38,191 bases of DNA from positions 1 to 38,191 of IMG/VR virus record IMGVR_UViG_2778261450_000003; one strand, given 5' to 3'. Origin of the DNA: a virus (taxonomy: Duplodnaviria; Heunggongvirae; Uroviricota; Caudoviricetes). Made by a program: the position numbers and the translations under genes. How positions within the stretch are numbered: the stretch's first letter is position 1; each line of letters begins with the position of its first letter. Under the pieces are notes generated by a model. That model worked only from the letters and a program-made list of their open reading frames with translations, searched no databases and was not told the origin of the DNA. This document shows, in pieces, positions 1 to 27,016 of the stretch.

Positions 1-573
1 TTACTTAGATATTATCCTTGATTCTTTCCGGGTGACATAAGTACAGTTTGAAGGAATTTCATCCATGATAAATGACATTGCCCCGATCTTGACATTATCT
101 CCAATTTTAAAACCAGAGCCCAGAATGAATGAGTGGGCGCCAATATCAACGTTATTGCCAATCGTTATTCTATCGTGTTCATTATCCGATTGACTACGAC
201 CAATGGTTGTATTTTGTCTGATAGTCAGATTTTCTCCAATGATTGCCGTACTGGTAACAACGATGCCCGTGTGATGGATAATTGTCAGACCCTTGCCAAC
301 GGTCAGCCCTAGACCAAGATCACAGCTGTATTCACTGAGTAATTTGCGGTTGATTTTCTTCGCTGCTTTTTTTGTATATTTCCCGCCATGGATAAACATT
401 TCATTTGCAAGTCTCCACCAGAAGATGTATTTTCTTGAGCGTGATCTCTTCTCTCTTAGTAGGCGATGAATTAAAAATCGATCGCGACGGATGACTTCAA
501 CTTTCCAGCATTCGAATAGATGTTTCGTATTACCAAATAATATAAAATAAAGAGCAAAAATATATTTAGTCAT
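1..573 (-). CDS. hexapeptide-repeat (left-handed beta-helix) acetyltransferase, serine/sugar O-acetyltransferase-like
   Basis: Complete 190-aa ORF (ATG 571-573, TAA 1-3); tandem hexapeptide motifs (IGENLTI, IGNNVDIG, IGDNVKIG); strongly AT-rich unlike the rest of the window. Confidence 0.6.
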   Translation of the reverse strand: MTKYIFALYFILFGNTKHLFECWKVEVIRRDRFLIHRLLREKRSRSRKYIFWWRLANEMFIHGGKYTKKAAKKINRKLLSEYSCDLGLGLTVGKGLTIIHHTGIVVTSTAIIGENLTIRQNTTIGRSQSDNEHDRITIGNNVDIGAHSFILGSGFKIGDNVKIGAMSFIMDEIPSNCTYVTRKESRIISK

Positions 574-771: not shown

Positions 772-912
772 TTACTGTTTACACTGTAAGAACGCCGCAA
801 ACTCCGCTCCCCAAAAACTCATCCGTATCTCACACAGTGAACCGTGCAACATCCAGATGATGAGGATTGCCGTCACGCAGAACGTGATGGCTGTAAGCGA
901 TTTTTGCGACAT
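772..912 (-). CDS. Hok/Gef-family type I toxin (small membrane peptide)
   Basis: 46-aa ORF MSQKSLTAITFCVTAILIIWMLHGSLCEIRMSFWGAEFAAFLQCKQ with AAGGAG RBS 8 nt upstream; hydrophobic N-terminal TM, SLCEIR and E-x-AAF-x-x-C-K motifs as remembered for Hok/HokA; below the ORF-track size cutoff. Confidence 0.6.
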   Translation of the reverse strand: MSQKSLTAITFCVTAILIIWMLHGSLCEIRMSFWGAEFAAFLQCKQ

Positions 913-1736: not shown

Positions 1737-3434
1737 TCAGGCGATAAGGTCACCGTATTTTTCGCGCAGGCTCGTAGCCTGTTTGGCGTCTGCGGCAAGT
1801 TCGCTGCTGTTTGTTGGTGCGCCGGTGTTGCTGTGGGTGTGGTTTGCAGTGTGTGTGGCCAGCAACTGAACCAGATCCAGAATATCAATCAACAACGTCA
1901 GCAGATTAAGTCCGGATTTTTCCCGTGAGCCACCGCGACCAATAAATACTGTCGGGGCTGTAAACTCCAGACCACCGTCCGCCCGGCATGTTCTGCGGCC
2001 TCCCACGTTTTCAGTAAGGTCGCGCTCAATCGTGGATGTCGCCCCTTTGAGTTTAGTCAGCAAATCCTGCGCTACCATCTGGATATGCTCACCGGCTGCG
2101 ATCGCATAATGACCAGTAGTAATGTGTTCTGTCTGGCCTGTCATCAGCTTGCTGGTTCCCAGAACGCTGGTTATGTCGTTTGCCTGTACTGTTGTTGTTC
2201 TGGTTGTTGTTGTGCGTTCTTCCTGATCGCTGTTAATGGTTCGTCTGGCTGAATGCTCCCTGATTTGCTGATCGGTTTCTCTGTGCCAGCTTCCGTCAGT
2301 CGTGACGCGCTGAAACACTTCTGCGCGCTGTTGCTGCAGCTGTTCGCCGGGCTTTACATCAGGCAGGTTATGGCCAGCGGGTAAGATTTGCCTGATAACG
2401 GGTTTGTCCGGACGTCCTTCAATGTTGGATATTTCCACGATGGTGCCTGCCGGTGGGTAGGCAAAACATCCCGCCTCACTGCCAGCCATGGGGACGGGGA
2501 GCGGTACTGCCGGGTAAACGGGCGTGTCGCTTTTATCGTTGCCGTTCTCATCAAGCAACTGCACATCGACGGCGTAGCGTGGGCGGAAACTGTCGGCCAC
2601 GTCGCCCAGGGTGGTGGGCTCCGTTGGCGCAATGACGCGCGCCAGCCGGGTATGTAGCGTACCGCTGGCCAGTTCCGGGAACTGTGTTTCCATTTGTCTG
2701 CGTAATGGTGATTTGGAAACAGGGGTACCCGTGGCGGTAAGGCGCTCCCATGTCAGGGTCATTTTCTCGTTGTTGAGGGCTACACGGGTAATGCGCCCGG
2801 CCGGTAGGTTCACGCCCGGTCGCACAGTTTCCATAAACATGATGTCGATGCTGTTTCCGCCGCTTTGCCCGAGTGTGTACTGTTGCGGAATATCCGGCAT
2901 TGTAATACTGGCAAATCGTGAATCAGCTGCGCTTCCCACAAATACAGAACCGTCCGGCATAGGGTGCCAGACGTAATCGCTGATACTGAATGCTCGCCCC
3001 AGTTGGCTGAGCAGTTGTGCTCCGCTGCCGCTGTGGGTGATGTAGGGAGTTGGTATACTGGCATAATCCGCATCCGGAGTGATAAAAACGATACCGCTTT
3101 GTCGCCCCAGATTATCGAGTACCCCCCGCAACGTCGGGTGTTGCATGGAGCAAGGGAAATCAAAATCCAGCACAGCAGCCGCTTCACGAATAAAAAGGCG
3201 ACGTGAGCCATTTTCAGCAGGTTGATCGCGCTCAATGTAGCCGGAGAAATAGCGCCATGCTTCACCGTCACGGCCGAGATCAATTTGTACCATTGCGCCG
3301 GCAAGGCTGTGTTCGGGTGACAGATTGTTAACAGAAATGAAGCCACGACCGGCAGCATTCAGGGTAAGAACAAGGCTTATATCGGCAATTTCCACCCGTT
3401 CGCCATTAATCATGCAGCGTTGTATCAATTTCAT
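1737..3434 (-). CDS. baseplate hub / central spike protein (gpD+gpV-like, VgrG-like architecture)
   Basis: 565-aa ORF, last gene of the tail operon with ATGA overlap to the upstream gene; mid-region resembles the gp5/gpV OB-fold (PMAGSEAGCFAYPPAGTIVEISNIEGRPDKPVI) and the C-terminus carries an HTANHTHSNTG motif like the His-rich spike apex; assignment from memory. Confidence 0.5.
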   Translation of the reverse strand: MKLIQRCMINGERVEIADISLVLTLNAAGRGFISVNNLSPEHSLAGAMVQIDLGRDGEAWRYFSGYIERDQPAENGSRRLFIREAAAVLDFDFPCSMQHPTLRGVLDNLGRQSGIVFITPDADYASIPTPYITHSGSGAQLLSQLGRAFSISDYVWHPMPDGSVFVGSAADSRFASITMPDIPQQYTLGQSGGNSIDIMFMETVRPGVNLPAGRITRVALNNEKMTLTWERLTATGTPVSKSPLRRQMETQFPELASGTLHTRLARVIAPTEPTTLGDVADSFRPRYAVDVQLLDENGNDKSDTPVYPAVPLPVPMAGSEAGCFAYPPAGTIVEISNIEGRPDKPVIRQILPAGHNLPDVKPGEQLQQQRAEVFQRVTTDGSWHRETDQQIREHSARRTINSDQEERTTTTRTTTVQANDITSVLGTSKLMTGQTEHITTGHYAIAAGEHIQMVAQDLLTKLKGATSTIERDLTENVGGRRTCRADGGLEFTAPTVFIGRGGSREKSGLNLLTLLIDILDLVQLLATHTANHTHSNTGAPTNSSELAADAKQATSLREKYGDLIA

Positions 3435-4006
3435 GTTTTCCCTTCCTCTTTCACGCTCCCGATGCCAACAGCATCCAGACCAGAGCCAACGGCATCATTG
3501 ATTTTTTTCCAGAACGAACTTTGCGTATTCATGCCTTTGTCTGGTACCTGTTCGCTGCCATTCTGGGTCTGCTGTCTGGCGATGGTTTTCTGCGAACCGC
3601 TGCGTGCGGATGCTTTCTCTGGCACGCTTAATTTTTCCCTGAGAGTAAAGGTGATCTGCCAGTGCATTTTTCCCTGTTGTTCCGTGGCATCAATGCCACC
3701 AGAAAACACCCCCTGTCGCATATTGATTGCCTTCGCGGTAGCGTTAGCAATGCGATATGTTTTTTTAGCACCGTTGCTTTCTGTTGCCTCCGCAAGCTGA
3801 AAAATACGGGTCAGAATAGCTTCATCGTTAAAATCAATAACCCCCGACACGCGCAGCTCTTTAGCCTTGTTTCCCTGCTGGGCGCTCGTGGTGCTGGTTG
3901 ACTGTCCGGACATATCTTTGTCCGGTAGTTGCATGGTGGCGCTGACGGTGATGTTACGCAGCAGAATGGCTTCCCCGTCAAGCGCAAGGACAATCATCTG
4001 GGTCAT
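3431..4006 (-). CDS. hypothetical protein in tail operon (possible tail/baseplate component)
   Basis: 191-aa ORF with AGGGAA RBS; ATGA-coupled to the hub/spike gene; no motif recognised. Confidence 0.35.
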   Translation of the reverse strand: MTQMIVLALDGEAILLRNITVSATMQLPDKDMSGQSTSTTSAQQGNKAKELRVSGVIDFNDEAILTRIFQLAEATESNGAKKTYRIANATAKAINMRQGVFSGGIDATEQQGKMHWQITFTLREKLSVPEKASARSGSQKTIARQQTQNGSEQVPDKGMNTQSSFWKKINDAVGSGLDAVGIGSVKEEGKT

Positions 4007-4691
4007 GTAGTGCTTCCCTTAGTGATGAGAGATTATCGCCGACGAACAGCATCACAGCTGTAAAAACCCACTCGGGGTGTGGGATGTTTTTTTGTATCAG
4101 CACTGCAGCCTGGCTAAGGGCTCCCTTGTAGCAAAAGCGCCACACCGGGCAAACTTTTTGCCGGAGTGCGGCCTGCTGATCAGCGATTTCCTGTAAGGCT
4201 TTATCTCTCGCATTCATGAACTGATGCAGCGATGATGACAATGTTTCCGGTGATGTGGCGGCAGGAGTGGCTGCCTGTGCAATGGTTGCTGCCAGCGACA
4301 TGCTGCGAGTGGTCTGTGTCGACAGCATTATCGGTTCCGGAAGTGATGTTGCCGGTCTGGCGGGGATTTGCATTCTGCTGATGGCCAGTGAAAGTTGACT
4401 GGAAATCATGCGGGACATTCGCCCCACCTCTGGCAATGGAAATGCGTCTGAAAATTGCCTGGCGAGTGATAAAAACTCGCCAGCAGAAGGAGCGCAAAAC
4501 AACAGCGCCACAATGTCTTTTTCTGTGCTTTCTTTCAGGTAGGGTAAAAGTGCAGATACAGCATTTTCGGGGCTGAGATAACGCCCCGATGGTTTGATGT
4601 TTCCGGTATTTTCTGACCACGGATGAAGACAAACCACAGAACATTTAATGTTTATGGCAGACGGACGTAAAATTACCTCTTTCCATTTCAT
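3978..4691 (-). CDS. hypothetical Cys-rich protein in tail operon
   Basis: 237-aa ORF whose ATG overlaps the stop of the upstream tail-fibre chaperone (ATGA); Cys pairs near both termini (CSVVC, CPVWRFC, DCPCA) and a Ser/Thr/Ala-rich middle; no family recognised. Confidence 0.35.
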   Translation of the reverse strand: MKWKEVILRPSAINIKCSVVCLHPWSENTGNIKPSGRYLSPENAVSALLPYLKESTEKDIVALLFCAPSAGEFLSLARQFSDAFPLPEVGRMSRMISSQLSLAISRMQIPARPATSLPEPIMLSTQTTRSMSLAATIAQAATPAATSPETLSSSLHQFMNARDKALQEIADQQAALRQKVCPVWRFCYKGALSQAAVLIQKNIPHPEWVFTAVMLFVGDNLSSLREALHDPDDCPCA

Positions 4692-5260
4692 TCTGCTTTG
4701 CCCACCTGAAATGCCCTAATTGCAGCAATGTTATTCAGTGTGGCCAGCGTGTTTTTCATCTCACGCTGGCGCAGGTAAATCTCATCGTTGCGTGCAGCCT
4801 GAGCCTGCACCATTGCCGTAAGTAGTTCTTCCAGCTTTTGTTGTGACAATTTAATTTGTTGGTTATTTGCATCACTCCATACTGTGGCATTGTGTGCCAC
4901 ACCAGATTTTGCTGCCATCACTGCCGGGAATAAGCGTTCCAGTGAGGATTTTCCTCCATTCCATGTGCTGCTGTTCCATTCGAATGTGAACGGCTGCGCC
5001 TCCTGTTCTGTTCGCCAGCGCCTGATTTCCTCTTTTTTCAGTTCTTTTTCTTTGTCCAGCATCTCTGCTGTTACAGTGAAGGGGATGATTTCACCAAACT
5101 CACCGCTCATCAGTGTTCCCCATACCCGCTGGCCTGATGCAGCAGAATCATTTTCCACTGCACGATAAGGAATATAATCAGCCCGCCCTTCAAACAACAC
5201 TTCACAGGAAACAGACCCGTCTTCCAGGTATTTCATCGCCTTTATGTCGATTATTTTCAT
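4688..5260 (-). CDS. tail fibre assembly chaperone (second copy, divergent type)
   Basis: 190 aa from the ATG at 5260, which overlaps the fibre-2 stop (TAATG); position directly after a tail fibre gene; weaker similarity to classical Tfa than the first copy. Confidence 0.45.
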   Translation of the reverse strand: MKIIDIKAMKYLEDGSVSCEVLFEGRADYIPYRAVENDSAASGQRVWGTLMSGEFGEIIPFTVTAEMLDKEKELKKEEIRRWRTEQEAQPFTFEWNSSTWNGGKSSLERLFPAVMAAKSGVAHNATVWSDANNQQIKLSQQKLEELLTAMVQAQAARNDEIYLRQREMKNTLATLNNIAAIRAFQVGKAE

Positions 5261-7299
5261 TATTCTGCCCTCATCACCAGGCAAATCCACCAGGCATTGG
5301 CTTTATTCCCACAGTTCAGACTCTGACTGGAGCCATTCAGAATAAAATAGGACCCCGGCAATAACCCGTACATCATCGATACGTTGTAAACCGATGCCGC
5401 TGCGCACGGATTACCATTGTTCTCAAACATAAGCGATACATGCCGTAACTTTTCGCCTGATATCCTGTCCCCACGCTTATGTGAGGCAAGGTCAGCGACA
5501 GATATTGCTGCCAGTGTGACTCCGTCAATCCCCGGGTTTCCCCAGAAGTCAGCAGAGCGTAATCCCTTCGCGCTGAGATTTCCCCAGCCAGCCAGACCGG
5601 CTCCGGCACTGGTCCATTTCAGCCAGTTGATAAACATTTCTCCCTTCTTACTCATGAAAATAATGAGCTTGTCTGCACGCGATTGCGAAGACGAGGAGGC
5701 TGTATCCGGAATAATAATTTCAACAATCCCTTCCAGACGATTTTCCTTGTCAATAATCTGAGGCGCGCTATATGAAGTACCGTCTCCTACCGCATACCGG
5801 CCCGGTGGTGTAGTGGATACCCAGGAAATAAAATCAGCAGGGCCGTTTTCTCCCCTGAAAATGACTTTGTCTTCATGTCGGTAATATCCTCCATATCCCA
5901 GCGTCCCCGGAATGGCCACCACGCCTTCGCTGCGGTCATAAATATTATTCTGTGGCACCACAGTGTCTGACCTTTCCAGCTCAAGCACTCTGCGCATATC
6001 TTCCGGTGTGGCCTGTGCCAGCAGTGAACGGGCTTCTGGCGTCAACCGTGTCAGCGATGCGTTCCCGTCCGAATCAAAGTACAGAAGATTATCTGCCTGA
6101 GCGTTTAACCTGCTGATGGCGGTTAAAACATCACTAAGTGGCTGTTTGCCTGCAAGCGCGTTAGTGACCGTCGTTGCAAAATTCGGGTCACTGCCCAGCG
6201 CCGCTGCCAGCTCATTCAGTGTGTCAAGGGCTTCCGGAGATGAGCCAACCAGTGCAGCGAGCAGTTTGCGGACAAACGCCGCGTTCGCCATCTCCAGCCC
6301 GACCGCATCATCCGGTGGGGTTGGTGTGGTTGGCGTACCGGTGAACGCCGGGCTGTTCAGCGGCGCGCGGGTTTCAATCAGCGCCCTGAGTGAAGCCTCG
6401 TTGACTTTCAGGTTTTCCCAGCCAGTCAGCAATCCATTTCCTGTACTCCAGTAACGGTTGTAATAAATATCACCGTTAATGCCATAGAAAATAATGGCCT
6501 TTGCTGTATGTGGTGGCAGAGGTGTGGAGCGTTCTGCTTCCAGCCAGCGGATACTTATCATCCCCCGGAAGGCGATGCCGGGAAGTACTCCGCTTCCCCC
6601 CTCCACATAATATTCTCCGGGTTCCACACATCTTACCCATGCCAGCAAATCAGCCTCGTTGTTAAACCTGACAGCATCACCCGGAATAAAAATATGACCA
6701 AAACCAAATGCGCCCGGTATCGCCAGACAACCTTCAGTCCGGTCTCGAATATCACCCTGTGGCTCCATTATGGCTGAAACTTTCAGTCCCAGATTGTCGC
6801 GGGATTCCTGTTGCGCCTCTTCGCCTTCTGCTGCAATTTCTGACAGGTGATTAGGAGTTTTCAGTGCTGTTTTCAGCTCCGGAGTGATATCCACCTGCCA
6901 GCTCTGGGGAGGGACGCTGATTTGCGCGGACTGAGCAATGCCTCTGTAGGTGATTGTAAAATTGCGGACGAGTGACTCACCTGTCGTTTTCTGTCTGACG
7001 GGAGTTTTTATTACGCCGCATAACGTTCCACTGGCCTGATGGATGAGACAAATCCAGTCATAACTGAAAACACAGTCATCAGGAACAACGGCGCTGCACA
7101 CAATAGTGTCCTGGCTTAACTGGCCACAGGTCAGTTCATTCACAGCGTATGTGATTCTGTCTTCCGGAACGGTATTGTCTTCGCGCGTTGGTTCCCGCTC
7201 CATCAGGGCAAAAATAATAGCGTCAGGGCGTGCAGGTAAATTACTGGCAGTGCATTCAGCAACCCACTTTTCAAATGCTTTTGTTAACAGTGCGCTCAT
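5260..7299 (-). CDS. tail fibre protein 2
   Basis: 679-aa ORF; N-terminal ~150 aa homologous to the N-terminus of the fibre at 7860-9560 (PARPD, SG-LC-I, TP motifs); contains an internal ~110-aa duplication (DRTEG...GWENL / DRSEG...GWGNL). Confidence 0.6.
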   Translation of the reverse strand: MSALLTKAFEKWVAECTASNLPARPDAIIFALMEREPTREDNTVPEDRITYAVNELTCGQLSQDTIVCSAVVPDDCVFSYDWICLIHQASGTLCGVIKTPVRQKTTGESLVRNFTITYRGIAQSAQISVPPQSWQVDITPELKTALKTPNHLSEIAAEGEEAQQESRDNLGLKVSAIMEPQGDIRDRTEGCLAIPGAFGFGHIFIPGDAVRFNNEADLLAWVRCVEPGEYYVEGGSGVLPGIAFRGMISIRWLEAERSTPLPPHTAKAIIFYGINGDIYYNRYWSTGNGLLTGWENLKVNEASLRALIETRAPLNSPAFTGTPTTPTPPDDAVGLEMANAAFVRKLLAALVGSSPEALDTLNELAAALGSDPNFATTVTNALAGKQPLSDVLTAISRLNAQADNLLYFDSDGNASLTRLTPEARSLLAQATPEDMRRVLELERSDTVVPQNNIYDRSEGVVAIPGTLGYGGYYRHEDKVIFRGENGPADFISWVSTTPPGRYAVGDGTSYSAPQIIDKENRLEGIVEIIIPDTASSSSQSRADKLIIFMSKKGEMFINWLKWTSAGAGLAGWGNLSAKGLRSADFWGNPGIDGVTLAAISVADLASHKRGDRISGEKLRHVSLMFENNGNPCAAASVYNVSMMYGLLPGSYFILNGSSQSLNCGNKANAWWICLVMRAE

Positions 7300-7305
7300 T
7301 ACTTC

Positions 7306-7857
7306 TTAATTCTCGCTAATGTTCTGCGGTAATTCTGGCCATACAATCGCGGCATACGATGCTTTATCTGTAACCTGGCTGAATGTCATCTCTCGTAACT
7401 TTTTTGTATAAATACGGCAGGCTTTCAGTTTTTCCCTGTCTTCGTCGCTGATTAATCCCAGCAGCAGGTCTTTTTCCCACTCGCAGGTCATGATGCTGGA
7501 CTGTTTTAACAGGGCATCACGCTCGTCTTCTGCTTTTAATTTGTAATCGAAGACAAATTCATCATTGCGGTAAAACCAGTAACCCGGTGCAGTGATGCGG
7601 CGGTTAGCGGTAATATCCGGAACTTCAATAACACTGGCATTACGGGGTTCAATGCCTGTCATATCCTTACCGACCCACACCACGCGCCCGTCCCCGGTGT
7701 AAACCATTTTTATTGTGTCGCTGGCAAAGTTCTTCTGTTCTTCATACCAGTTTTTGTCGTCTTCCGAAAAAAGCCAGGTGACACCATATTGTTTTGTCAT
7801 CTGATATTGTTCTGCGGTTTTCGGATTGCCCGCAGTAATATTTTTTAAATGCAACAT
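7306..7857 (-). CDS. tail fibre assembly protein (Tfa/gpG-like)
   Basis: 183-aa ORF immediately after fibre 1; C-terminal region (DEDREKLKACRIYTKKLREM...WPELP) resembles conserved Tfa C-termini. Confidence 0.6.
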   Translation of the reverse strand: MLHLKNITAGNPKTAEQYQMTKQYGVTWLFSEDDKNWYEEQKNFASDTIKMVYTGDGRVVWVGKDMTGIEPRNASVIEVPDITANRRITAPGYWFYRNDEFVFDYKLKAEDERDALLKQSSIMTCEWEKDLLLGLISDEDREKLKACRIYTKKLREMTFSQVTDKASYAAIVWPELPQNISEN

Positions 7858-7859
7858 TA

Positions 7860-9560
7860 TTAAACACTCGCCACGTTATACCAGGTGCCGTTAATCAGTT
7901 TCTGAAGCGGTCGGTAATACACGCCGCCGATGTTATCTGCCGAATTACTTCCGGTTTCCTGCACATTAATACCAGATAATCCATGGCCTGAAGGTGAGCG
8001 AAATGTCCAGGATATCTGGTTACCTCCCGGGTTGTAATACATTTCGGAACCATAACGCACATCCTGCACGCCGCCTGTTTTGGTCTGGTAACGGGCATCA
8101 AAGTTTCCGTAGTCTGACGGTGTTACCCGCCCGGTAACGTTTACAGGTTTATTACTCTGAATGCTGCCACTCTGAAAACGCAACACATGCACGCTATTGG
8201 CATAAACATCCAGCAGGCCATCACCATTCTGTTTCAGGCCGGTATCGTTATCCCCGAAAGCAATTGAGTTTCCGCCCAGCGCATTCTGAACGCCGATACC
8301 CAACGCACCGTTAACTTTCGAACCACCGCCAACAGATACTGCGTGTAACATGGAAACTTCACCCGTCCGCAAATTAATAGTGAACGGACGCAGGGGGCCA
8401 ATATCGCCATTCTCGCCCTGACCTTCACTGGTAGGGATAAGGTGCAGGCACTCTTCCGAACGACGAAAAATCAGGCCAAAAGCTTCGTTGAAAATCCTCA
8501 GTGCATTAACACCACGGATTTTCAGCTCCCCGGTCATGGTGTCGCCGTCGCGCTCAACAGCGTCTTTTGCTTTATCCATTGCGGCTTTTACTGCCTTTGA
8601 TGTGGCGGCGCGGTCTTCTGCGTCGCTGTCGGTGGAGTTGCTGTACTGCGCAAAGCCTTTCTCCTGCAGTGTTGCGTCCGGATGATGGCGGGATTTTTCG
8701 TGCTCTGCCAGTGCATTGCTTTGTTCTTCGTCGGGTGTCTCCGGGCGCAGGTCCTGTGGGCCGTCTCCTGTCATTTTTGCAAGTGGCGCGACAAAGTGTC
8801 GGAAGCCGTTACCGTCTGTATAAGACGCATGTTCCTGGCGGGCGCAGAACGTAAAAACGGTATTCCATTCGCCAGTAACAAATCCCTGCCAGCTTGCATC
8901 AATCCAGAGGGTATCCCCGACCGCAGCCGGCAGGCTGTAAGGTTCGCGCAGACTGACGCGCAGACCTCCCACATAACCCACGCCGGCGGCAACAGTAGCG
9001 GTACCGTCCTGATAGCTGACCTGAAAACCATCCCCCAGAAAGGCGGCTTCACCGTAGTGATCAAACGCCAGCAGCCGGCGGGCCTCATCCATTCCTGCAA
9101 GGCGTGCAGTGAAATCAATCTGCCAGACATCAGCGCTGACATCGATATGCATTGCTGCGGCTGCGCCGTCAAACTCCATGGAAAATGTGCGGATCAGGTT
9201 GTTTCCCTGCACGCCGTTCGCTGTTTTAATTTTTTGCTGACGAGGTGTGTGTGCAATCATGCAGAGCACGCCGCTTTCTTCGTTCAGCAGACCGATCCAG
9301 TTGTATTCGAAGTCGCCGACTGTCGTGTCCAGAATGATGGAAAACGCGGTCGCGTTCGGCGACAGGAGGCCGTACTGGGTGACCGGCGCACGATACTGAA
9401 TCATGGATTCATCAGGGAGTATCTCATCGCGGGGGATCTCTGCGGATTCATCCTGTCCCGGAATATATGCAAAAACAAATGTATCCGGGCGCGCAGGTTT
9501 TCCACTGATGATTTGATTTGCGCACCAGTGTTCGTACTGTTCAGTAATAATCGTGCTCAT
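7860..9560 (-). CDS. tail fibre protein 1
   Basis: 566-aa ORF, ATGA-coupled to the upstream baseplate gene; shares its N-terminal domain with fibre 2; Gly-rich C-terminal region. Confidence 0.6.
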   Translation of the reverse strand: MSTIITEQYEHWCANQIISGKPARPDTFVFAYIPGQDESAEIPRDEILPDESMIQYRAPVTQYGLLSPNATAFSIILDTTVGDFEYNWIGLLNEESGVLCMIAHTPRQQKIKTANGVQGNNLIRTFSMEFDGAAAAMHIDVSADVWQIDFTARLAGMDEARRLLAFDHYGEAAFLGDGFQVSYQDGTATVAAGVGYVGGLRVSLREPYSLPAAVGDTLWIDASWQGFVTGEWNTVFTFCARQEHASYTDGNGFRHFVAPLAKMTGDGPQDLRPETPDEEQSNALAEHEKSRHHPDATLQEKGFAQYSNSTDSDAEDRAATSKAVKAAMDKAKDAVERDGDTMTGELKIRGVNALRIFNEAFGLIFRRSEECLHLIPTSEGQGENGDIGPLRPFTINLRTGEVSMLHAVSVGGGSKVNGALGIGVQNALGGNSIAFGDNDTGLKQNGDGLLDVYANSVHVLRFQSGSIQSNKPVNVTGRVTPSDYGNFDARYQTKTGGVQDVRYGSEMYYNPGGNQISWTFRSPSGHGLSGINVQETGSNSADNIGGVYYRPLQKLINGTWYNVASV

Positions 9561-11716: not shown

Positions 11717-13802
11717 GCAGCTCCATCCACTCGTTAAGACGGGCAGGGGATGGATCCTGCACATTGACGTTAACCACACGACGGGAGTTGTCGATGGTGG
11801 TCTGGTTTTCGCTGTTGTTCTGCATCTCTGCCGCAATGCCGCCCGGTCCCGCACTGATGGCTTTACCGCCGGTTAATACGGAGCCTTCGCCACTTCCTGT
11901 GCTTTCCGGTGTGTCGATATTGACGCCGGGGATCATGTTGAGCTTGCCTACAATCCAGCCCCATGAATCACTGAAGGACTGTTTCACCAGTTCCCAGAGG
12001 TTACTGAAAATGTTCAGGATGCCGCCGGCGATATCCTTCAGGGCGTCCAGAGGTGAATGCGTGGAAAAATAGTTAACCAGTGCATTCCAGCCGTCCTGAA
12101 TTGTGTTCCATGCATTGCTGAACCATGCCCCCATACTGCCGACCATTTCAGCCACCCACTGAAAGGCGGCGGTATCCATCAGCGCGGCTTTAATCTCATC
12201 CCAGCGGGTGATCAGGAAATAAATGCCCACGCCCAGCGCAGCCAGTGCCAGGATGATTAATGTGATGGGGCTGAAAAGTAACTGTGTTGCAATTGCAGCT
12301 CCGCTGGTGACTGCGGTGTAGATTTTCATTGCTATGCCGGCGGCACCCAGCGCAACAGAATAAAGCCAGAGTCCGGCGCGCTGTAATTTCAGCAGCGCCA
12401 GCTGAATTTTTGCTTTGACGTTGTATGTTCCCATAGCAATGGACATGGCCAGATACAGCGCCCTGACCGTTCGGGCAACTACAGTGAACGCCCACATGGT
12501 AGCCGTCAGTGTGCGTTTCAGCAGAATGAGGATCTTCAGCGGCGCAACGGCTGCCAGCCAGACCAGCCGCAGTCCTGTCCAGACAAACTTCGCCACACCC
12601 ACCATAATGTTGACAACGGCACCCACTGCGGCAATGCCCAGCAGGGCGGCAGACAGTAAACCAATGGCCCGTGTGATATTGGGATACAGACGTAGCCAGG
12701 TAACAAAGGATTTACCGCCTTCGTTGCTTTTCTGGATAAACGGGTACAGAACAGGCAGCAACTGCGTGCCGATTTCGATGCGAATGCCGTTAATAATTGC
12801 GGCGGCCTGTTCCCATGGATCAGCCATGGCCTGCGCCATTTCGACAGCCTTATCCATACCTTTGATATTGCCCAGCGTGGCGATATTCTTTTCAAGTCCG
12901 CCAATGTCCGCATTGAGTAATTTAATCATGGCCACAGCTTCATCGGAGCCAAAGGCGCTTTTCAGCAAATCGGAATCAGCCACTTTTGACAGATCACCAA
13001 ATTTACCCCTGATAAGTTTCATGATCTCGACAACACTTTTCATCGTGCCGTCTTTATTCACGAAATTAAGCCCCAGCTTTTTCTGGGCGCTGCCTACTGC
13101 GGCAAGAAATGCCTTGTATTTTGTCCCGGCTTCGCTGCCACTCATGGTTGCCTGCAGTTGTCCCAGCACGGCGAACTGTTCAGCCGCATCAATACCGGCC
13201 GCTTTTGCACTGGCACCCAGCGTGGTGAACGCTGCTGACATGTTATCGCCGGTTGTTTTAAACATTTGCACGGCGGTGGCGGTTTGCCCGGCGACCTGCT
13301 CCACCCATTTGCTTTTTCCCATGGCATCAGCCTGGTCTTTAAAGATGCCGTACATGGTGCCCATGTAGGCGGTAATGGTCTGGCTGCTGGATTTGGTTGC
13401 TGCTGCCACCGTTGCTGATGCGGTGGTGAAGCGGGACAGCTCATCGTCAGTTAACCCGGCAATGGCTGACTGGATGTCGTAAGAAGCACGCACAAAATCC
13501 TGCGCAGCCCCGCCGTATTCCATAGTGAAATCAACGGCGGCGCGGCTGAGTTTACGCAATCCGGACTCTGCGACGCCCAGTGATTTCACCTCACCGAGCG
13601 CCCTGTCCATTTCAATGGCTGGCATCAGTGCCCCCTGAATGGCTGCTCCCACTCCCCAGAGCGCAGCGCCTCCGGTAGCAATGTCCCGAAAGGCTCCCCG
13701 ACTTGTTGCAGCAAATCCCTGAACCTGTCGCCCGGCTGCACGCAACGGCCTTGTCAGGCGGTCTGTCAGTTCAAGAAGTAATTCAAGGCGCTGTTGTGAC
13801 AT
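11706..13802 (-). CDS. tail tape measure protein
   Basis: 698-aa ORF, Ala/Gly-rich with several hydrophobic segments, directly downstream of the chaperone frameshift pair; largest gene in the tail module. Confidence 0.8.
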   Translation of the reverse strand: MSQQRLELLLELTDRLTRPLRAAGRQVQGFAATSRGAFRDIATGGAALWGVGAAIQGALMPAIEMDRALGEVKSLGVAESGLRKLSRAAVDFTMEYGGAAQDFVRASYDIQSAIAGLTDDELSRFTTASATVAAATKSSSQTITAYMGTMYGIFKDQADAMGKSKWVEQVAGQTATAVQMFKTTGDNMSAAFTTLGASAKAAGIDAAEQFAVLGQLQATMSGSEAGTKYKAFLAAVGSAQKKLGLNFVNKDGTMKSVVEIMKLIRGKFGDLSKVADSDLLKSAFGSDEAVAMIKLLNADIGGLEKNIATLGNIKGMDKAVEMAQAMADPWEQAAAIINGIRIEIGTQLLPVLYPFIQKSNEGGKSFVTWLRLYPNITRAIGLLSAALLGIAAVGAVVNIMVGVAKFVWTGLRLVWLAAVAPLKILILLKRTLTATMWAFTVVARTVRALYLAMSIAMGTYNVKAKIQLALLKLQRAGLWLYSVALGAAGIAMKIYTAVTSGAAIATQLLFSPITLIILALAALGVGIYFLITRWDEIKAALMDTAAFQWVAEMVGSMGAWFSNAWNTIQDGWNALVNYFSTHSPLDALKDIAGGILNIFSNLWELVKQSFSDSWGWIVGKLNMIPGVNIDTPESTGSGEGSVLTGGKAISAGPGGIAAEMQNNSENQTTIDNSRRVVNVNVQDPSPARLNEWMELHAY

Positions 13803-14283
13803 TACGATCCCTTAAAAGCACGGATAATGCCGTTATTGACGGCGATGCTCATATTTTCCCAGTAGTGGTTATCCAGCCAGACGGCGGCAGCCAGTGACTG
13901 CGGCGAGTCATCCTCGCCGGGCAGCCAGTGGCGGCGCAGAATCAGCATCCGGGTAAGGTCATTGCGATCAATGGCCCCCAGATGGCTTTTTATTTTTTTA
14001 CGGTGATTTCCACTTCCGGCACAAACTCGTTATTCACGGCTGTTGCCAGGCTGGCCGGCATTCCTGGTTTTTCCAGCAACTGGTTCAGCAGATCGCGGTG
14101 CTCTTTAATCACGATACGGCGCAGGTAGTTTTTCAGCGGCGCGATTTTGTTATCCGGCATGAAGTCGTTCTGCAGGTCGTTGTAGGCTTTTACGGTCGGG
14201 ATAAACGTCAGTTCATGCTCGCCGACCTGTAAAGTGATGGTGTTCTCTGCGGTAGTCTGGGTGTTTTTATCGTTCATCATCAT
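13802..14283 (-). CDS. tail assembly chaperone -1 frameshift fusion product (E+E'-like)
   Basis: A -1 slip on the A7 run gives a 62-codon stop-free extension (IKSHLGAIDRNDLTRMLILRRHWLPGEDDSPQSLAAAVWLDNHYWENMSIAVNNGIIRAFKGS) whose TAA overlaps the tape-measure ATG (TAATG). Confidence 0.55.
13990..14283 (-). CDS. tail assembly chaperone (P2 gpE / lambda gpG analogue)
   Basis: 97-aa ORF between lysis genes and tape measure, ending ...VKK-stop on an A7 run. Confidence 0.6.
   Translation of the reverse strand: MMMNDKNTQTTAENTITLQVGEHELTFIPTVKAYNDLQNDFMPDNKIAPLKNYLRRIVIKEHRDLLNQLLEKPGMPASLATAVNNEFVPEVEITVKK
13993..13999 (-). other. candidate -1 programmed ribosomal frameshift slippery site (A AAA AAA)
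   Basis: Heptanucleotide A-run at the end of the chaperone ORF; the downstream -1 frame is open as far as the tape-measure start. Confidence 0.5.
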
Positions 14284-23142: not shown

Positions 23143-24169
23143 AAAGAAGAAATATTCTGTGACACACGATGCCGGAGCAAAAAAAACGGCCGGCAAAATG
23201 ACGTTTATTGAATTTGGTGACCCCGAACCGGTTGCTGCATGGGGCTGTTATTACGGCTCGCTGTGGGATGGTTATAACGGCTGGTACACGCCGCCCATTG
23301 AGCGCATGGATCTCGCCATGTTGTCCAATATCGCGCCGTATCACGGCGCAGTATTGCGTGCGCGCGTCAATATGATTATGCAGGGTTTTCGGGGCGGTGG
23401 GGGTATGACACACGCCGCCATGGCGGCAGCAGTGACCAATCTGCTGATATTCGGGGATATGGGGCTGCTTAAAGTACGTAACGGCTTCGGTCGGGTGGTG
23501 CGTCTGCATACGTTGCCTTCTCTGTATCTGCGGCGTAACAACGAGGGAGGCACGGTGATTGTGCAGGCGGCACTGGAAGATCTCGTGTATCCGCCAGGCG
23601 AAGTGGTGTTCGTGGCCATTTATGACCCGCAACAGCAGGTTTACGGTGTCCCGGATTATATCCACGGGATGGAATCCGCCATGCTGAATGTGGATGCCAC
23701 CCGCTTTCGCCGCAAGTATTACAAGAACGGCGCACACCTCGGTTATATCCTGTATTCCACTGACCCGGATATGACTCCCGAGCTCGAGGCGGAATTCCGT
23801 AAAAAGATAGAGGGGTCAAAAGGGGCGGGCAATTTTAAATCCATGTTCATCAATATACCGGGCGGAGACAAAGAAGGGGTTAAGGTGATTCCTATCGGGG
23901 ATTCAGGTACAAAAGATGAGTTCCTGAATATAAAAACCATCAGTGCTCAGGATCAGCTCGTGGCGCACCGTTTTCCACCCGGACTTGCCGGCATCATTCC
24001 CGCAAATACGGCCGGGCTTGGCGACCCACTTAAATCCCGCGAGGCATATTACAGGGATGAGGTTATTCCGATGCGCCGTCTGATTATGGAGGGGATCAAC
24101 AGTGACCCGGATATCAGGCGACTGGGGGAGGTGAAATTTATTCTTGAATTTAACGAATCCACGGAGTGA
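23135..24169 (+). CDS. portal (capsid vertex) protein, P2 gpQ-like
   Basis: 344-aa ORF, the length of P2 gpQ; overlaps the terminase 3' end by 8 nt. Confidence 0.8.
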   Translation: MSKKKKYSVTHDAGAKKTAGKMTFIEFGDPEPVAAWGCYYGSLWDGYNGWYTPPIERMDLAMLSNIAPYHGAVLRARVNMIMQGFRGGGGMTHAAMAAAVTNLLIFGDMGLLKVRNGFGRVVRLHTLPSLYLRRNNEGGTVIVQAALEDLVYPPGEVVFVAIYDPQQQVYGVPDYIHGMESAMLNVDATRFRRKYYKNGAHLGYILYSTDPDMTPELEAEFRKKIEGSKGAGNFKSMFINIPGGDKEGVKVIPIGDSGTKDEFLNIKTISAQDQLVAHRFPPGLAGIIPANTAGLGDPLKSREAYYRDEVIPMRRLIMEGINSDPDIRRLGEVKFILEFNESTE

Positions 24170-24234
24170 TGTGCGGTATGGGGAAAGAGCGGGTAAAATC
24201 GGCGGCAGTAAAACGCTGTTCCGGGAGGTGGAAA

Positions 24235-24492
24235 ATGCGCAGACAGAAAGCGCGATGTCATTGCTGCGGTGCACATGCAGTGATTGAGAAAACAGCCTGG
24301 AAAACCGATCAGTTTGCTGATGTGTATTACCGTTGCACCCGTCTCGAGTGCGGACATACCTGGGTGATGAATCTGACCTACTCGCACACACTGGTGCCCA
24401 GCGGGCTGGATAACGGTGTGTTAAAGCTGTTGATTGAACGGATGCGCCCGGAAGAAAAACAAATGGCGCTGGAATTGTTGCAAGCGGGTTAG
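24235..24492 (+). CDS. Ogr/Delta-family zinc-finger late-gene transcriptional activator
   Basis: 85 aa from the internal ATG at 24235 with GGGAGGTG RBS; C-x-CC ... C-x4-C pattern (CHCCGAHA ... CTRLEC) matching the Ogr Cys4 finger; the track's longer ORF overlaps the portal gene. Confidence 0.65.
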   Translation: MRRQKARCHCCGAHAVIEKTAWKTDQFADVYYRCTRLECGHTWVMNLTYSHTLVPSGLDNGVLKLLIERMRPEEKQMALELLQAG

Positions 24493-25737: not shown

Positions 25738-26052
25738 TTATTCTGGAAAAAACGCCTGAATATTCTTTTTCACCTGCTGCATAGGGTGGGCGCTGGCTGT
25801 TGCTGGTTGCGCCTGTTTTTCAGGCTGCACTGGCAGCGATGTCATCCGTATTTCGTCTTCTGACCATTCTGCCAGCGAATACGCCAGTGCGGGGGCACGT
25901 TTTATGAGTGCCAGTCCAGCCAGAAAGGCCGCGCGTTGTGCGCGGCTGCGTTCCGAGGCTGGCAGGCTGTCGAGGTAATTGCACGCCTCCTGTTCACTCT
26001 TGACGGCGGCTGGCTTCAGATAGAAACTTATCCGTCTGGTTGGTGACGTCAT
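25738..26052 (-). CDS. parR: ParR/StbB-like centromere-binding partition protein
   Basis: 104 aa from the ATG at 26052 with AAGGAG RBS, 4 nt after the parM stop; DSLPASERSRAQRAAFLAGLAL closely resembles the R1 ParR region DSIPQGERSRLNRAALTAGLAL (from memory). Confidence 0.7.
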   Translation of the reverse strand: MTSPTRRISFYLKPAAVKSEQEACNYLDSLPASERSRAQRAAFLAGLALIKRAPALAYSLAEWSEDEIRMTSLPVQPEKQAQPATASAHPMQQVKKNIQAFFPE

Positions 26053-26056
26053 TGGT

Positions 26057-27016
26057 TTACTCCTTGTCCATTGCGTACAGCCCATTAACCAGAGCAAACT
26101 GTGGCACCCCGTCCGCGATGAAAGTCGCATTAACTCCGCAGGCTTCGCGGATAGCGGGTGCCACAATATCAGCCCCTCCACCGACAACCATCACCCGTCC
26201 GTACCCCGAAAAACCAGCCAGCGCACGGATCACACGTTGTTTCAGTGTTTCTTCCTTTTCATGAATAACCGCCATCAGGTTGGCGTAATGCGCGTCATTG
26301 TGAATGTGCTGGCGCAGCCAGGCTTCATCGTGGCGATGTTCGATAATGGTATTGGCGATGTGGTGACTGGTGCGCATACCGTTAGTGGCCATCACCGACA
26401 GTACAGCATCGGCCATCAGAGAAACGCCTACGTGTGGATCGCAAAACACCTGGCTGATACCTGCCAGTTGTCCCTGAACCTTTGCCACATCCAGCGTGGT
26501 TCCGCCTAAATCAACAATAAGCAGGGATTCAAACGGACTCATGTCAGCCAGCGCCTTAAAGCCTGCCGGAATGGATTCAGGCATAACCCGCACGTTACGG
26601 ATAGTGAATGCTTTGCCGTTCTGGTACTCCACCGGGCGCATGACGTTCGCTTTTTTTCGGTTGATGTTTGCCATGTCCGGCTGTGCGTTTGTGTCGAAAT
26701 ATTCGCTCAGTGGCAGGGTGACAACCACATCCACTTCCTGTGGCGTGATGCCTGATTTGACCAGTGCGTGATGAATGGCAATGACATTCACATCACTGTA
26801 CTGGTATTGCGTGTCGGTCGTCTGGACAAAGCGATCGCTGACCGGATCAAAACCATAGCGCACGCTATCAAGCATGTAGTTCGCGGGCTGCATGCCACCG
26901 AACGGCGCAGACCATTCCGACTTGAAGCTGTTCGGGCTGATGGCGTTGCGGCGTTCGCTGTTCTCAGTCCATGCCAGCTTGATGTTGGTTGAGCCGTCGT
27001 CGATGTAAATTTTCAT
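26057..27016 (-). CDS. parM: ParM/StbA actin-like plasmid segregation ATPase
   Basis: 319-aa ORF with AAGGAA RBS; N-terminus MKIYIDDGSTNIKLAW...ISPNSFK...YQYSDVNVIAIHHAL matches remembered R1 ParM (MLVFIDDGSTNIKLQW...ISPNSFK...WQYSDVNVVAVHHAL). Confidence 0.85.
   Translation of the reverse strand: MKIYIDDGSTNIKLAWTENSERRNAISPNSFKSEWSAPFGGMQPANYMLDSVRYGFDPVSDRFVQTTDTQYQYSDVNVIAIHHALVKSGITPQEVDVVVTLPLSEYFDTNAQPDMANINRKKANVMRPVEYQNGKAFTIRNVRVMPESIPAGFKALADMSPFESLLIVDLGGTTLDVAKVQGQLAGISQVFCDPHVGVSLMADAVLSVMATNGMRTSHHIANTIIEHRHDEAWLRQHIHNDAHYANLMAVIHEKEETLKQRVIRALAGFSGYGRVMVVGGGADIVAPAIREACGVNATFIADGVPQFALVNGLYAMDKE

Follow-up and report, generated by a model that had tools for sequence, protein, structure and literature searches.

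The window analysed here is the whole 38,191-nucleotide (nt) IMG/VR virus record IMGVR_UViG_2778261450_000003, an Escherichia coli prophage of the HP1 subgroup of the Peduoviridae. This report concerns orf33 and orf34, two small genes that form with orf35 a translationally coupled cassette closing the late operon, which would encode the central baseplate (Table 1). The original prediction described a Cys-rich protein of 237 amino acids (aa) and a protein of 191 aa, coupled by ATGA junctions and a 29-nt overlap and left without assignment. The two open reading frames (ORFs) and their junctions, read directly from the sequence, lie exactly where it had placed them.

Table 1. Positions of the orf33-orf34-orf35 cassette, its junctions, and the upstream fibre genes in the window
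Feature	Position	Strand	Remark
First tail fibre	9560..7860	-	
Assembly protein of first fibre	7857..7306	-	
Second tail fibre	7299..5260	-	
DUF4376 tail-fibre assembly protein, second fibre cassette	5290..4688	-	Upstream boundary; Pfam DUF4376 E = 2.1e-12; PHROG 1141
ATGA overlap, second fibre chaperone (DUF4376) stop / orf33 start	4688..4691	-	
orf33-family gene (237 aa, 25.9 kDa, isoelectric point (pI) 8.2)	4691..3978	-	HP1-lineage tail-module protein, possibly baseplate or hub accessory component
29-nt overlap, orf33 stop / orf34 start	3978..4006	-	Includes orf34 Shine-Dalgarno context; read directly from sequence
orf34-family gene (191 aa, 20.6 kDa, pI 9.2)	4006..3431	-	Tube-fold baseplate protein, probable tube initiator
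ATGA overlap, orf34 stop / orf35 start	3431..3434	-	
orf35-family gene (565 aa)	3434..1737	-	Putative hub-spike fusion; last gene of the cassette

The cassette genes are homologous to orf33, orf34, and orf35 of Haemophilus phage HP1 (UniProt P51737-P51739), with 25, 47, and 38% identity, respectively, over essentially the full length; orf33 and orf34 thus belong to known, catalogued families that were first seen in the HP1 genome. Hidden Markov models were built for the orf33 and orf34 families and used to scan 80 IMG/VR loci, which had been found with the orf34 profile, together with six phages. An orf33-family ORF was located directly upstream of an orf34-family ORF in all 86 loci, including those from Haemophilus, Vibrio, Pseudomonas, and Pseudoalteromonas, so that the comparison across related phages suggested in the original prediction revealed a fully conserved pair. 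Homologous orf33-orf34-orf35 genes are carried by HP1, K139/Kappa, phiO18P, ESSI-2, vB_YenM_324, phi3, and ACA1, and in HP1-type relatives the cassette likewise closes the late operon behind a tail-fibre chaperone gene, its stop and start codons overlapping; the E. coli prophage differs from HP1 in having an additional second fibre and chaperone cassette upstream. The orf33 products of Vibrio, Aeromonas, and Pseudomonas have an N-terminal extension of ~45-65 aa relative to the E. coli version. The orf33-family gene of phi3 (L006, NC_030940; 2584-3504, +) is present without annotation in the RefSeq record. The homologue in E. coli STEC719 (L012, 3242-3955) is intact, with no internal stop, and also lacks annotation by the Prokaryotic Genome Annotation Pipeline (PGAP), which instead placed a 276-nt ORF on the opposite strand inside it.

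The ATG of ORF34 is preceded, 6 nt ahead, by the Shine-Dalgarno sequence AAGGGAAG. The 29-nt overlap is identical in most of the 80 IMG/VR loci, while in other lineages orf33 and orf34 overlap by 35, 22, 14, 13, or 4 nt or are separated by an 11-nt gap; the 4-nt overlap between orf34 and orf35 is annotated in the same form in HP1, the Yersinia phage, Kappa, and phiO18P. The possibility of programmed frameshifting within the 29-nt overlap was considered and rejected: relative to ORF33, ORF34 lies in the +1 frame, and the other lineages differ in both length and phase. All three cassette genes are under purifying selection, the ratio of nonsynonymous to synonymous substitution rates (dN/dS) among diverged E. 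coli copies being 0.09-0.31 for ORF33, 0.04-0.11 for ORF34, and 0.05-0.11 for ORF35. Because of these low values and of full-length homologues down to ~25% identity, ORF33 and ORF34 are genuine genes. The G+C content of orf33 and orf34 (0.50-0.51) is the same as that of the flanking tail genes.

ORF35 matched PHROG 2258 "baseplate protein" (E = 4.8e-232), and its residues 310-460 gave weak, sub-threshold matches to Phage_base_V, gp5_C, and VgrG. HP1 orf35 was described as a fusion of gpD and gpV homologues, an architecture supported by the HHpred results of the same study (Hwang et al., 2023; PMC10612066, Table S1 footnote). The alignment of our ORF35 profile with the single P2 gpD and gpV sequences (hhalign) was not significant. 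Judging from its sequence, ORF35 is predicted to be a gpD-like N-terminal hub fused to a gpV/VgrG-like OB domain and a beta-helix spike.

ORF34 is a member of Pfam PF25759, "Bacteriophage HP1 ORF34 baseplate complex protein" (E = 2.5e-53; 180.8 bits against a cut-off of 27), with residues 2-175 aligned to positions 2-177 of the 180-position profile, and the same family is carried by each of 73 ORF34 homologues (73/73); PGAP names the 191-aa product "baseplate complex protein" in E. coli relatives. In an AlphaFold2 model built on 49 homologues, the core is a beta-sandwich plus a helix (residues ~50-125) with a predicted local distance difference test (pLDDT) score above 90, and the parts of low confidence are a long hairpin loop (33-45) and a C-terminal tail with helices at 128-137 and 162-179. 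The model has the tail-tube (Hcp/gp19-like) fold and is most similar in structure to ripcord and tube-initiator proteins, among which P2 gpU is classed. The original prediction had held that neither protein looks structural, which fails for ORF34, and it had also offered gpU/gpX-type tail components as an alternative; of that alternative, the tail-component part and the gpU fold class hold for the 191-aa protein at the level of structure.

A dedicated tube protein of the HP1-Orf24 family already adjoins the sheath gene in the same module. The C-terminal helix of ORF34 is conserved in sequence and preceded by a variable low-complexity linker. This parallels P2 gpU, six copies of which rest on the gpD hub trimer and touch the wedge triplex with their C-terminal helices (P2 electron cryo-microscopy (cryo-EM) preprint). 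Because of the tube fold, the presence of a separate tube protein, and this gpU-like helix, ORF34 is probably the tube initiator, a functional analogue of gpU and the pyocin ripcord, as judged from fold and context. Several results weigh against this assignment: ORF34 had no match to PF06995 at E <= 0.1, hhalign gave a probability of 0.2% against P2 gpU, the reported HHpred match between the family and gpU was "uncertain" at 15% identity, and the ACA1 homologue was not detected by mass spectrometry (MS) of virions (Hwang et al., 2023; PMC10612066). Some homologues carry other names in GenBank and UniRef records, namely "nucleoid DNA-binding protein" in phi3 and "adenine glycosylase" in vB_YenM_324 and Salinivibrio SMHB1. 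These names and the basic character of ORF34 would fit a DNA-interacting protein, but no family model backs them, the fold is that of a tail tube, and the gene is fixed beside the hub gene; we regard this explanation as scarcely credible, and the names look like propagated mis-annotation.

ORF33 is a different case. It matched the functionally unannotated families PHROG 1677 (E = 4e-40) and PHROG 31292 (E = 1.3e-73) and aligned full-length with HP1 orf33, while no Pfam or PADLOC family was found for it, NCBIfam held no family for either ORF33 or ORF34, and a Pfam scan of 62 ORF33 family members at E <= 10 gave no consistent family. An exhaustive profile search of 1.84 billion cluster representatives recovered only 279 relatives; the 150 that were listed are all stand-alone proteins of at most ~325 aa (the shorter ones are probably fragments) with zero fusions, and the relatives with names come from Gammaproteobacteria. 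The AlphaFold2 model of ORF33 is confident (pLDDT 85.7; predicted template modelling score 0.80) and consists of an alpha/beta domain that is assembled from strands of both termini and interrupted by helices inserted at ~87-177. It had no structural relative, being dissimilar to the proteins of solved baseplates and returning nothing from BFVD with Foldseek, so the structural homology to tail components that the original prediction had named for both proteins was obtained for ORF34 (ripcord and tube-initiator matches) and not for ORF33. Among PDB chains, searched by sequence and by profile, there was no meaningful match for ORF33, ORF34, or ORF35 and no HP1-type baseplate structure.

The description of the 237-aa protein as Cys-rich is weakly true: it has seven Cys residues (3.0%), none of which reaches 60% conservation across the family. 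Two of them, C234 and C236, fall within the 29-nt overlap, the sequence that specifies the conserved ORF34 N-terminus MTQMIVLALDG as well, and this coding constraint would account for their conservation. A candidate metal-binding Cys/His site (C17, C21, H23, and C66) was rejected, as its residues are not conserved outside the enterobacterial members. The best-conserved positions family-wide are mostly hydrophobic or structural (W3, P24, L39, A44, L52, R94, L155, and L221). ORF33 is the fastest-evolving protein of the tail module: it shares 25% identity with HP1, as against 38-57% for orf34, orf35, the tape measure, and the W-, J-, and I-like proteins. In sum, this alpha/beta protein is specific to its lineage, evolves fast, does not look like an enzyme, and is co-encoded with orf34 in every case. 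In virions of ACA1, the ORF33 homologue gp46 was represented by 2 spectra with 6% coverage and a normalised count of 0.09, which is within the range of gpJ (0.05), gpV (0.06), gpD (0.19), and gpI (0.23; Hwang et al., 2023; PMC10612066).

The P2 baseplate contains the hub gpD (three copies), the tube initiator gpU (six), the LysM "glue" protein gpX (six), wedges of two gpJ and one gpI, the sheath initiator gpW, and the spike gpV (P2 cryo-EM preprint). Each of these components except gpX has an identifiable HP1-type counterpart; the DUF2590 protein is that of the gpW-like sheath initiator (Hwang et al., 2023; PMC10612066, Table S1). No LysM or gpX-like ORF was found among the late genes of the window, and tblastn of P2 gpX, gpU, gpD, gpV, and gpW against the window gave no match. 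The orf33 gene is the sole conserved tail-module gene of the HP1-type lineage without an assigned part, and it occupies the same neighbourhood as the glue gene (PA0627) of pyocin R2, which lies between the ripcord and hub genes. On these grounds, that is, the lone missing counterpart, the lack of a LysM ORF, the unassigned gene, and the gene order of pyocin R2, ORF33 may take the role of gpX. We propose that ORF34 would form a hexameric ring on the trimeric hub and, like P2 gpU and the pyocin R2 ripcord, start the polymerisation of the tube, with its conserved C-terminal helix probably reaching the wedge on the flexible linker, and that ORF33 would be a low-copy virion protein at the interface between the hub/initiator and the wedge. 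The low copy number expected of gpX fits the MS level of the orf33 homologue in ACA1.

The glue role for ORF33 has to be weighed against results that speak the other way: hhalign of ORF33 with P2 gpX was not significant, ORF33 shows no LysM fold and no similarity to gpX in sequence or fold (the gpX half of the earlier gpU/gpX suggestion accordingly found no backing, just as its gpU half lacks a sequence link), at 237 aa it is 3-4 times larger than gpX (67 aa), and some cellular material contaminated the ACA1 virion preparation (Hwang et al., 2023; PMC10612066). We consider it somewhat better than an even chance that ORF33 has any structural role, whereas its being the substitute for the glue protein at the hub-wedge interface is a tentative proposal, and equally tentative is the broader one of a novel baseplate family limited to HP1-type contractile tails, which would replace the near-universal LysM glue (gpX/gp53/Afp7-C). 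ORF33 might instead be a non-structural assembly factor for the complex of hub, spike, and tube initiator, with a role like that of T4 gp51 and absent from the virion or present adventitiously, ORF34 still being the initiator. Such a factor would fit the dissimilarity of ORF33 to every protein in solved baseplates, its rapid evolution in terms of both identity to HP1 and higher dN/dS, the tight coupling of its translation to that of orf34 and orf35, and an MS signal of only 2 spectra from the contaminated ACA1 preparation. However, that signal is close in level to those of genuine baseplate proteins of low copy number (Hwang et al., 2023; PMC10612066), a Yersinia phage record calls the homologue a "structural protein" (the basis is not stated), and HP1-type phages lack an equivalent of the glue protein, which something must supply. 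We judge an assembly factor to be unlikely, although it is the main alternative. Much less likely still is a tail-carried enzyme or ejected effector, e.g., one that resembles an Ntn hydrolase or a protease and acts on the cell envelope: the wide ORF33 family has no invariant candidate catalytic residue, which speaks against an enzyme.

The original prediction had leaned towards accessory cargo, comparing the slot with that of Z/fun in P2; on such a reading, orf33 and orf34 would be a moron or serve lysogenic conversion or defence. The position after the fibre chaperone does resemble the junction between G and Z/fun in P2, and ORF33 has no Pfam family, but the likeness to Z/fun is superficial and ends with that position: P2 Z/fun lies on the other strand, is dispensable, and varies in its presence, whereas orf33 and orf34 are co-oriented with the tail genes, translationally coupled, and universally present. 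The cargo explanation is unsupported because of the conserved synteny in 86/86 loci, the purifying selection, and the tail-like G+C content; moreover, the ATGA and 29-nt coupling places both genes within the late operon, PADLOC gave no match to a defence family for either, ORF34 has a tube fold, and the real variable cargo is located elsewhere in the prophage. It appears to us extremely improbable. The original interpretation is thus supported in part, its tail-component option being correct and its cargo option wrong. We consider it quite likely that orf33 and orf34 are core HP1-type tail genes, with ORF34 as the tube initiator and ORF33 as a hub/wedge protein, and neither a moron nor a defence gene.

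True cargo lies beyond orf35 at the prophage end, where a Hok/Gef ORF (912..775, -), which is 98% identical to the one annotated in locus L010, and a hexapeptide-repeat acetyltransferase gene (573..1, -) are located. The latter has a G+C content of 0.38 and is called "serine acetyltransferase" in the annotation of a relative; relatives carry Hok/Gef together with a Com protein and a DNA methyltransferase at this end instead. The second fibre and chaperone cassette (4688-7299, -) is a variable slot upstream of orf33 in E. coli relatives (L001, 14358-15869; L009, 5989-8232; L011, 6024-7964), which contains other fibre genes, is interrupted by a shikimate-transporter fragment (MB07081), or is truncated by IS1 (strain 58-3). 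In strain 58-3, only the fibre, orf33-35, hok, and the acetyltransferase gene are left, between glsA and copA.

The remainder of the window contains P2-type head genes and further tail genes. The gpO scaffold, gpM, and gpL genes were identified, and candidates for gpN, gpP, and gpQ were recognised by size and position alone. The tail side comprises the tail-completion genes for gpR and gpS, a holin, an M15 endolysin, a DUF2586 ORF annotated as sheath, a tail assembly chaperone, and the tape measure, which is followed by the DUF2590 protein, a Baseplate_J protein, a Tail_P2_I protein, and then the fibres. The tail assembly chaperone (13990..14283) is separated from the tape-measure gene by a 48-aa DUF6890 ORF (13802-13948, -), the stop of which overlaps the tape-measure start. 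Because this ORF occupies the site where P2 has the E' frameshift extension of the chaperone gpE, it may extend the chaperone by a frameshift and not be a separate gene. An Ogr/Delta zinc-finger late activator is encoded beside the end of the portal gene (24166-24492, +), and a Plasmid_stab_B-family protein in the early region (25738-26187, -). Of 5,426 complete E. coli genomes, 48 carry the 1.26-kb interval of orf33 and orf34 with 80-99.9% identity, and megablast of the region against the phage collection gave zero matches. A literature search for the function or virion proteomics of HP1 orf33 and orf34 yielded two useful sources, the ACA1 paper and the preprint on P2 cryo-EM.

The main value of this analysis is correct annotation: orf33 and orf34 are best described as core tail/baseplate genes of HP1-type prophages and not as cargo, DNA-binding proteins, or glycosylases, and the tube-fold product of orf34 can be labelled a probable tube initiator. 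The remaining interest lies in orf33, a universal gene with a confidently folded product that has no structural relative, in a tail lineage without the LysM glue protein, which occurs in P2, pyocins, T4, and extracellular contractile injection systems (eCIS). If ORF33 does replace that protein, at least one part of the "minimal conserved baseplate" has been substituted by a non-homologous one. Placing ORF33 would complete the parts list of the second major tail type of the Peduoviridae and test the replaceability of the conserved baseplate core.

Among known contractile systems, the tube initiators with which ORF34 can be compared are P2 gpU, pyocin R2 PA0626, Pam3 gp17, Pa193 gp38 and gp39, the N-domain of Mu gp43, and T4 gp48/gp54. 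The initiators of eCIS carry a LysM domain, which is lacking in ORF34, and orf34 also differs from the genes of the P2 gpU/ripcord class in that the wedge and fibre genes lie between it and the tape-measure gene. The predicted hub and spike are fused in the E. coli prophage, as in HP1, but are encoded by two genes in Pseudoalteromonas ACA1 and Pseudomonas phi3. As for ORF33, its fold, alpha/beta with a helical insertion, differs from the LysM fold of gpX and PA0627, although its gene stands where pyocin R2 has the glue gene.

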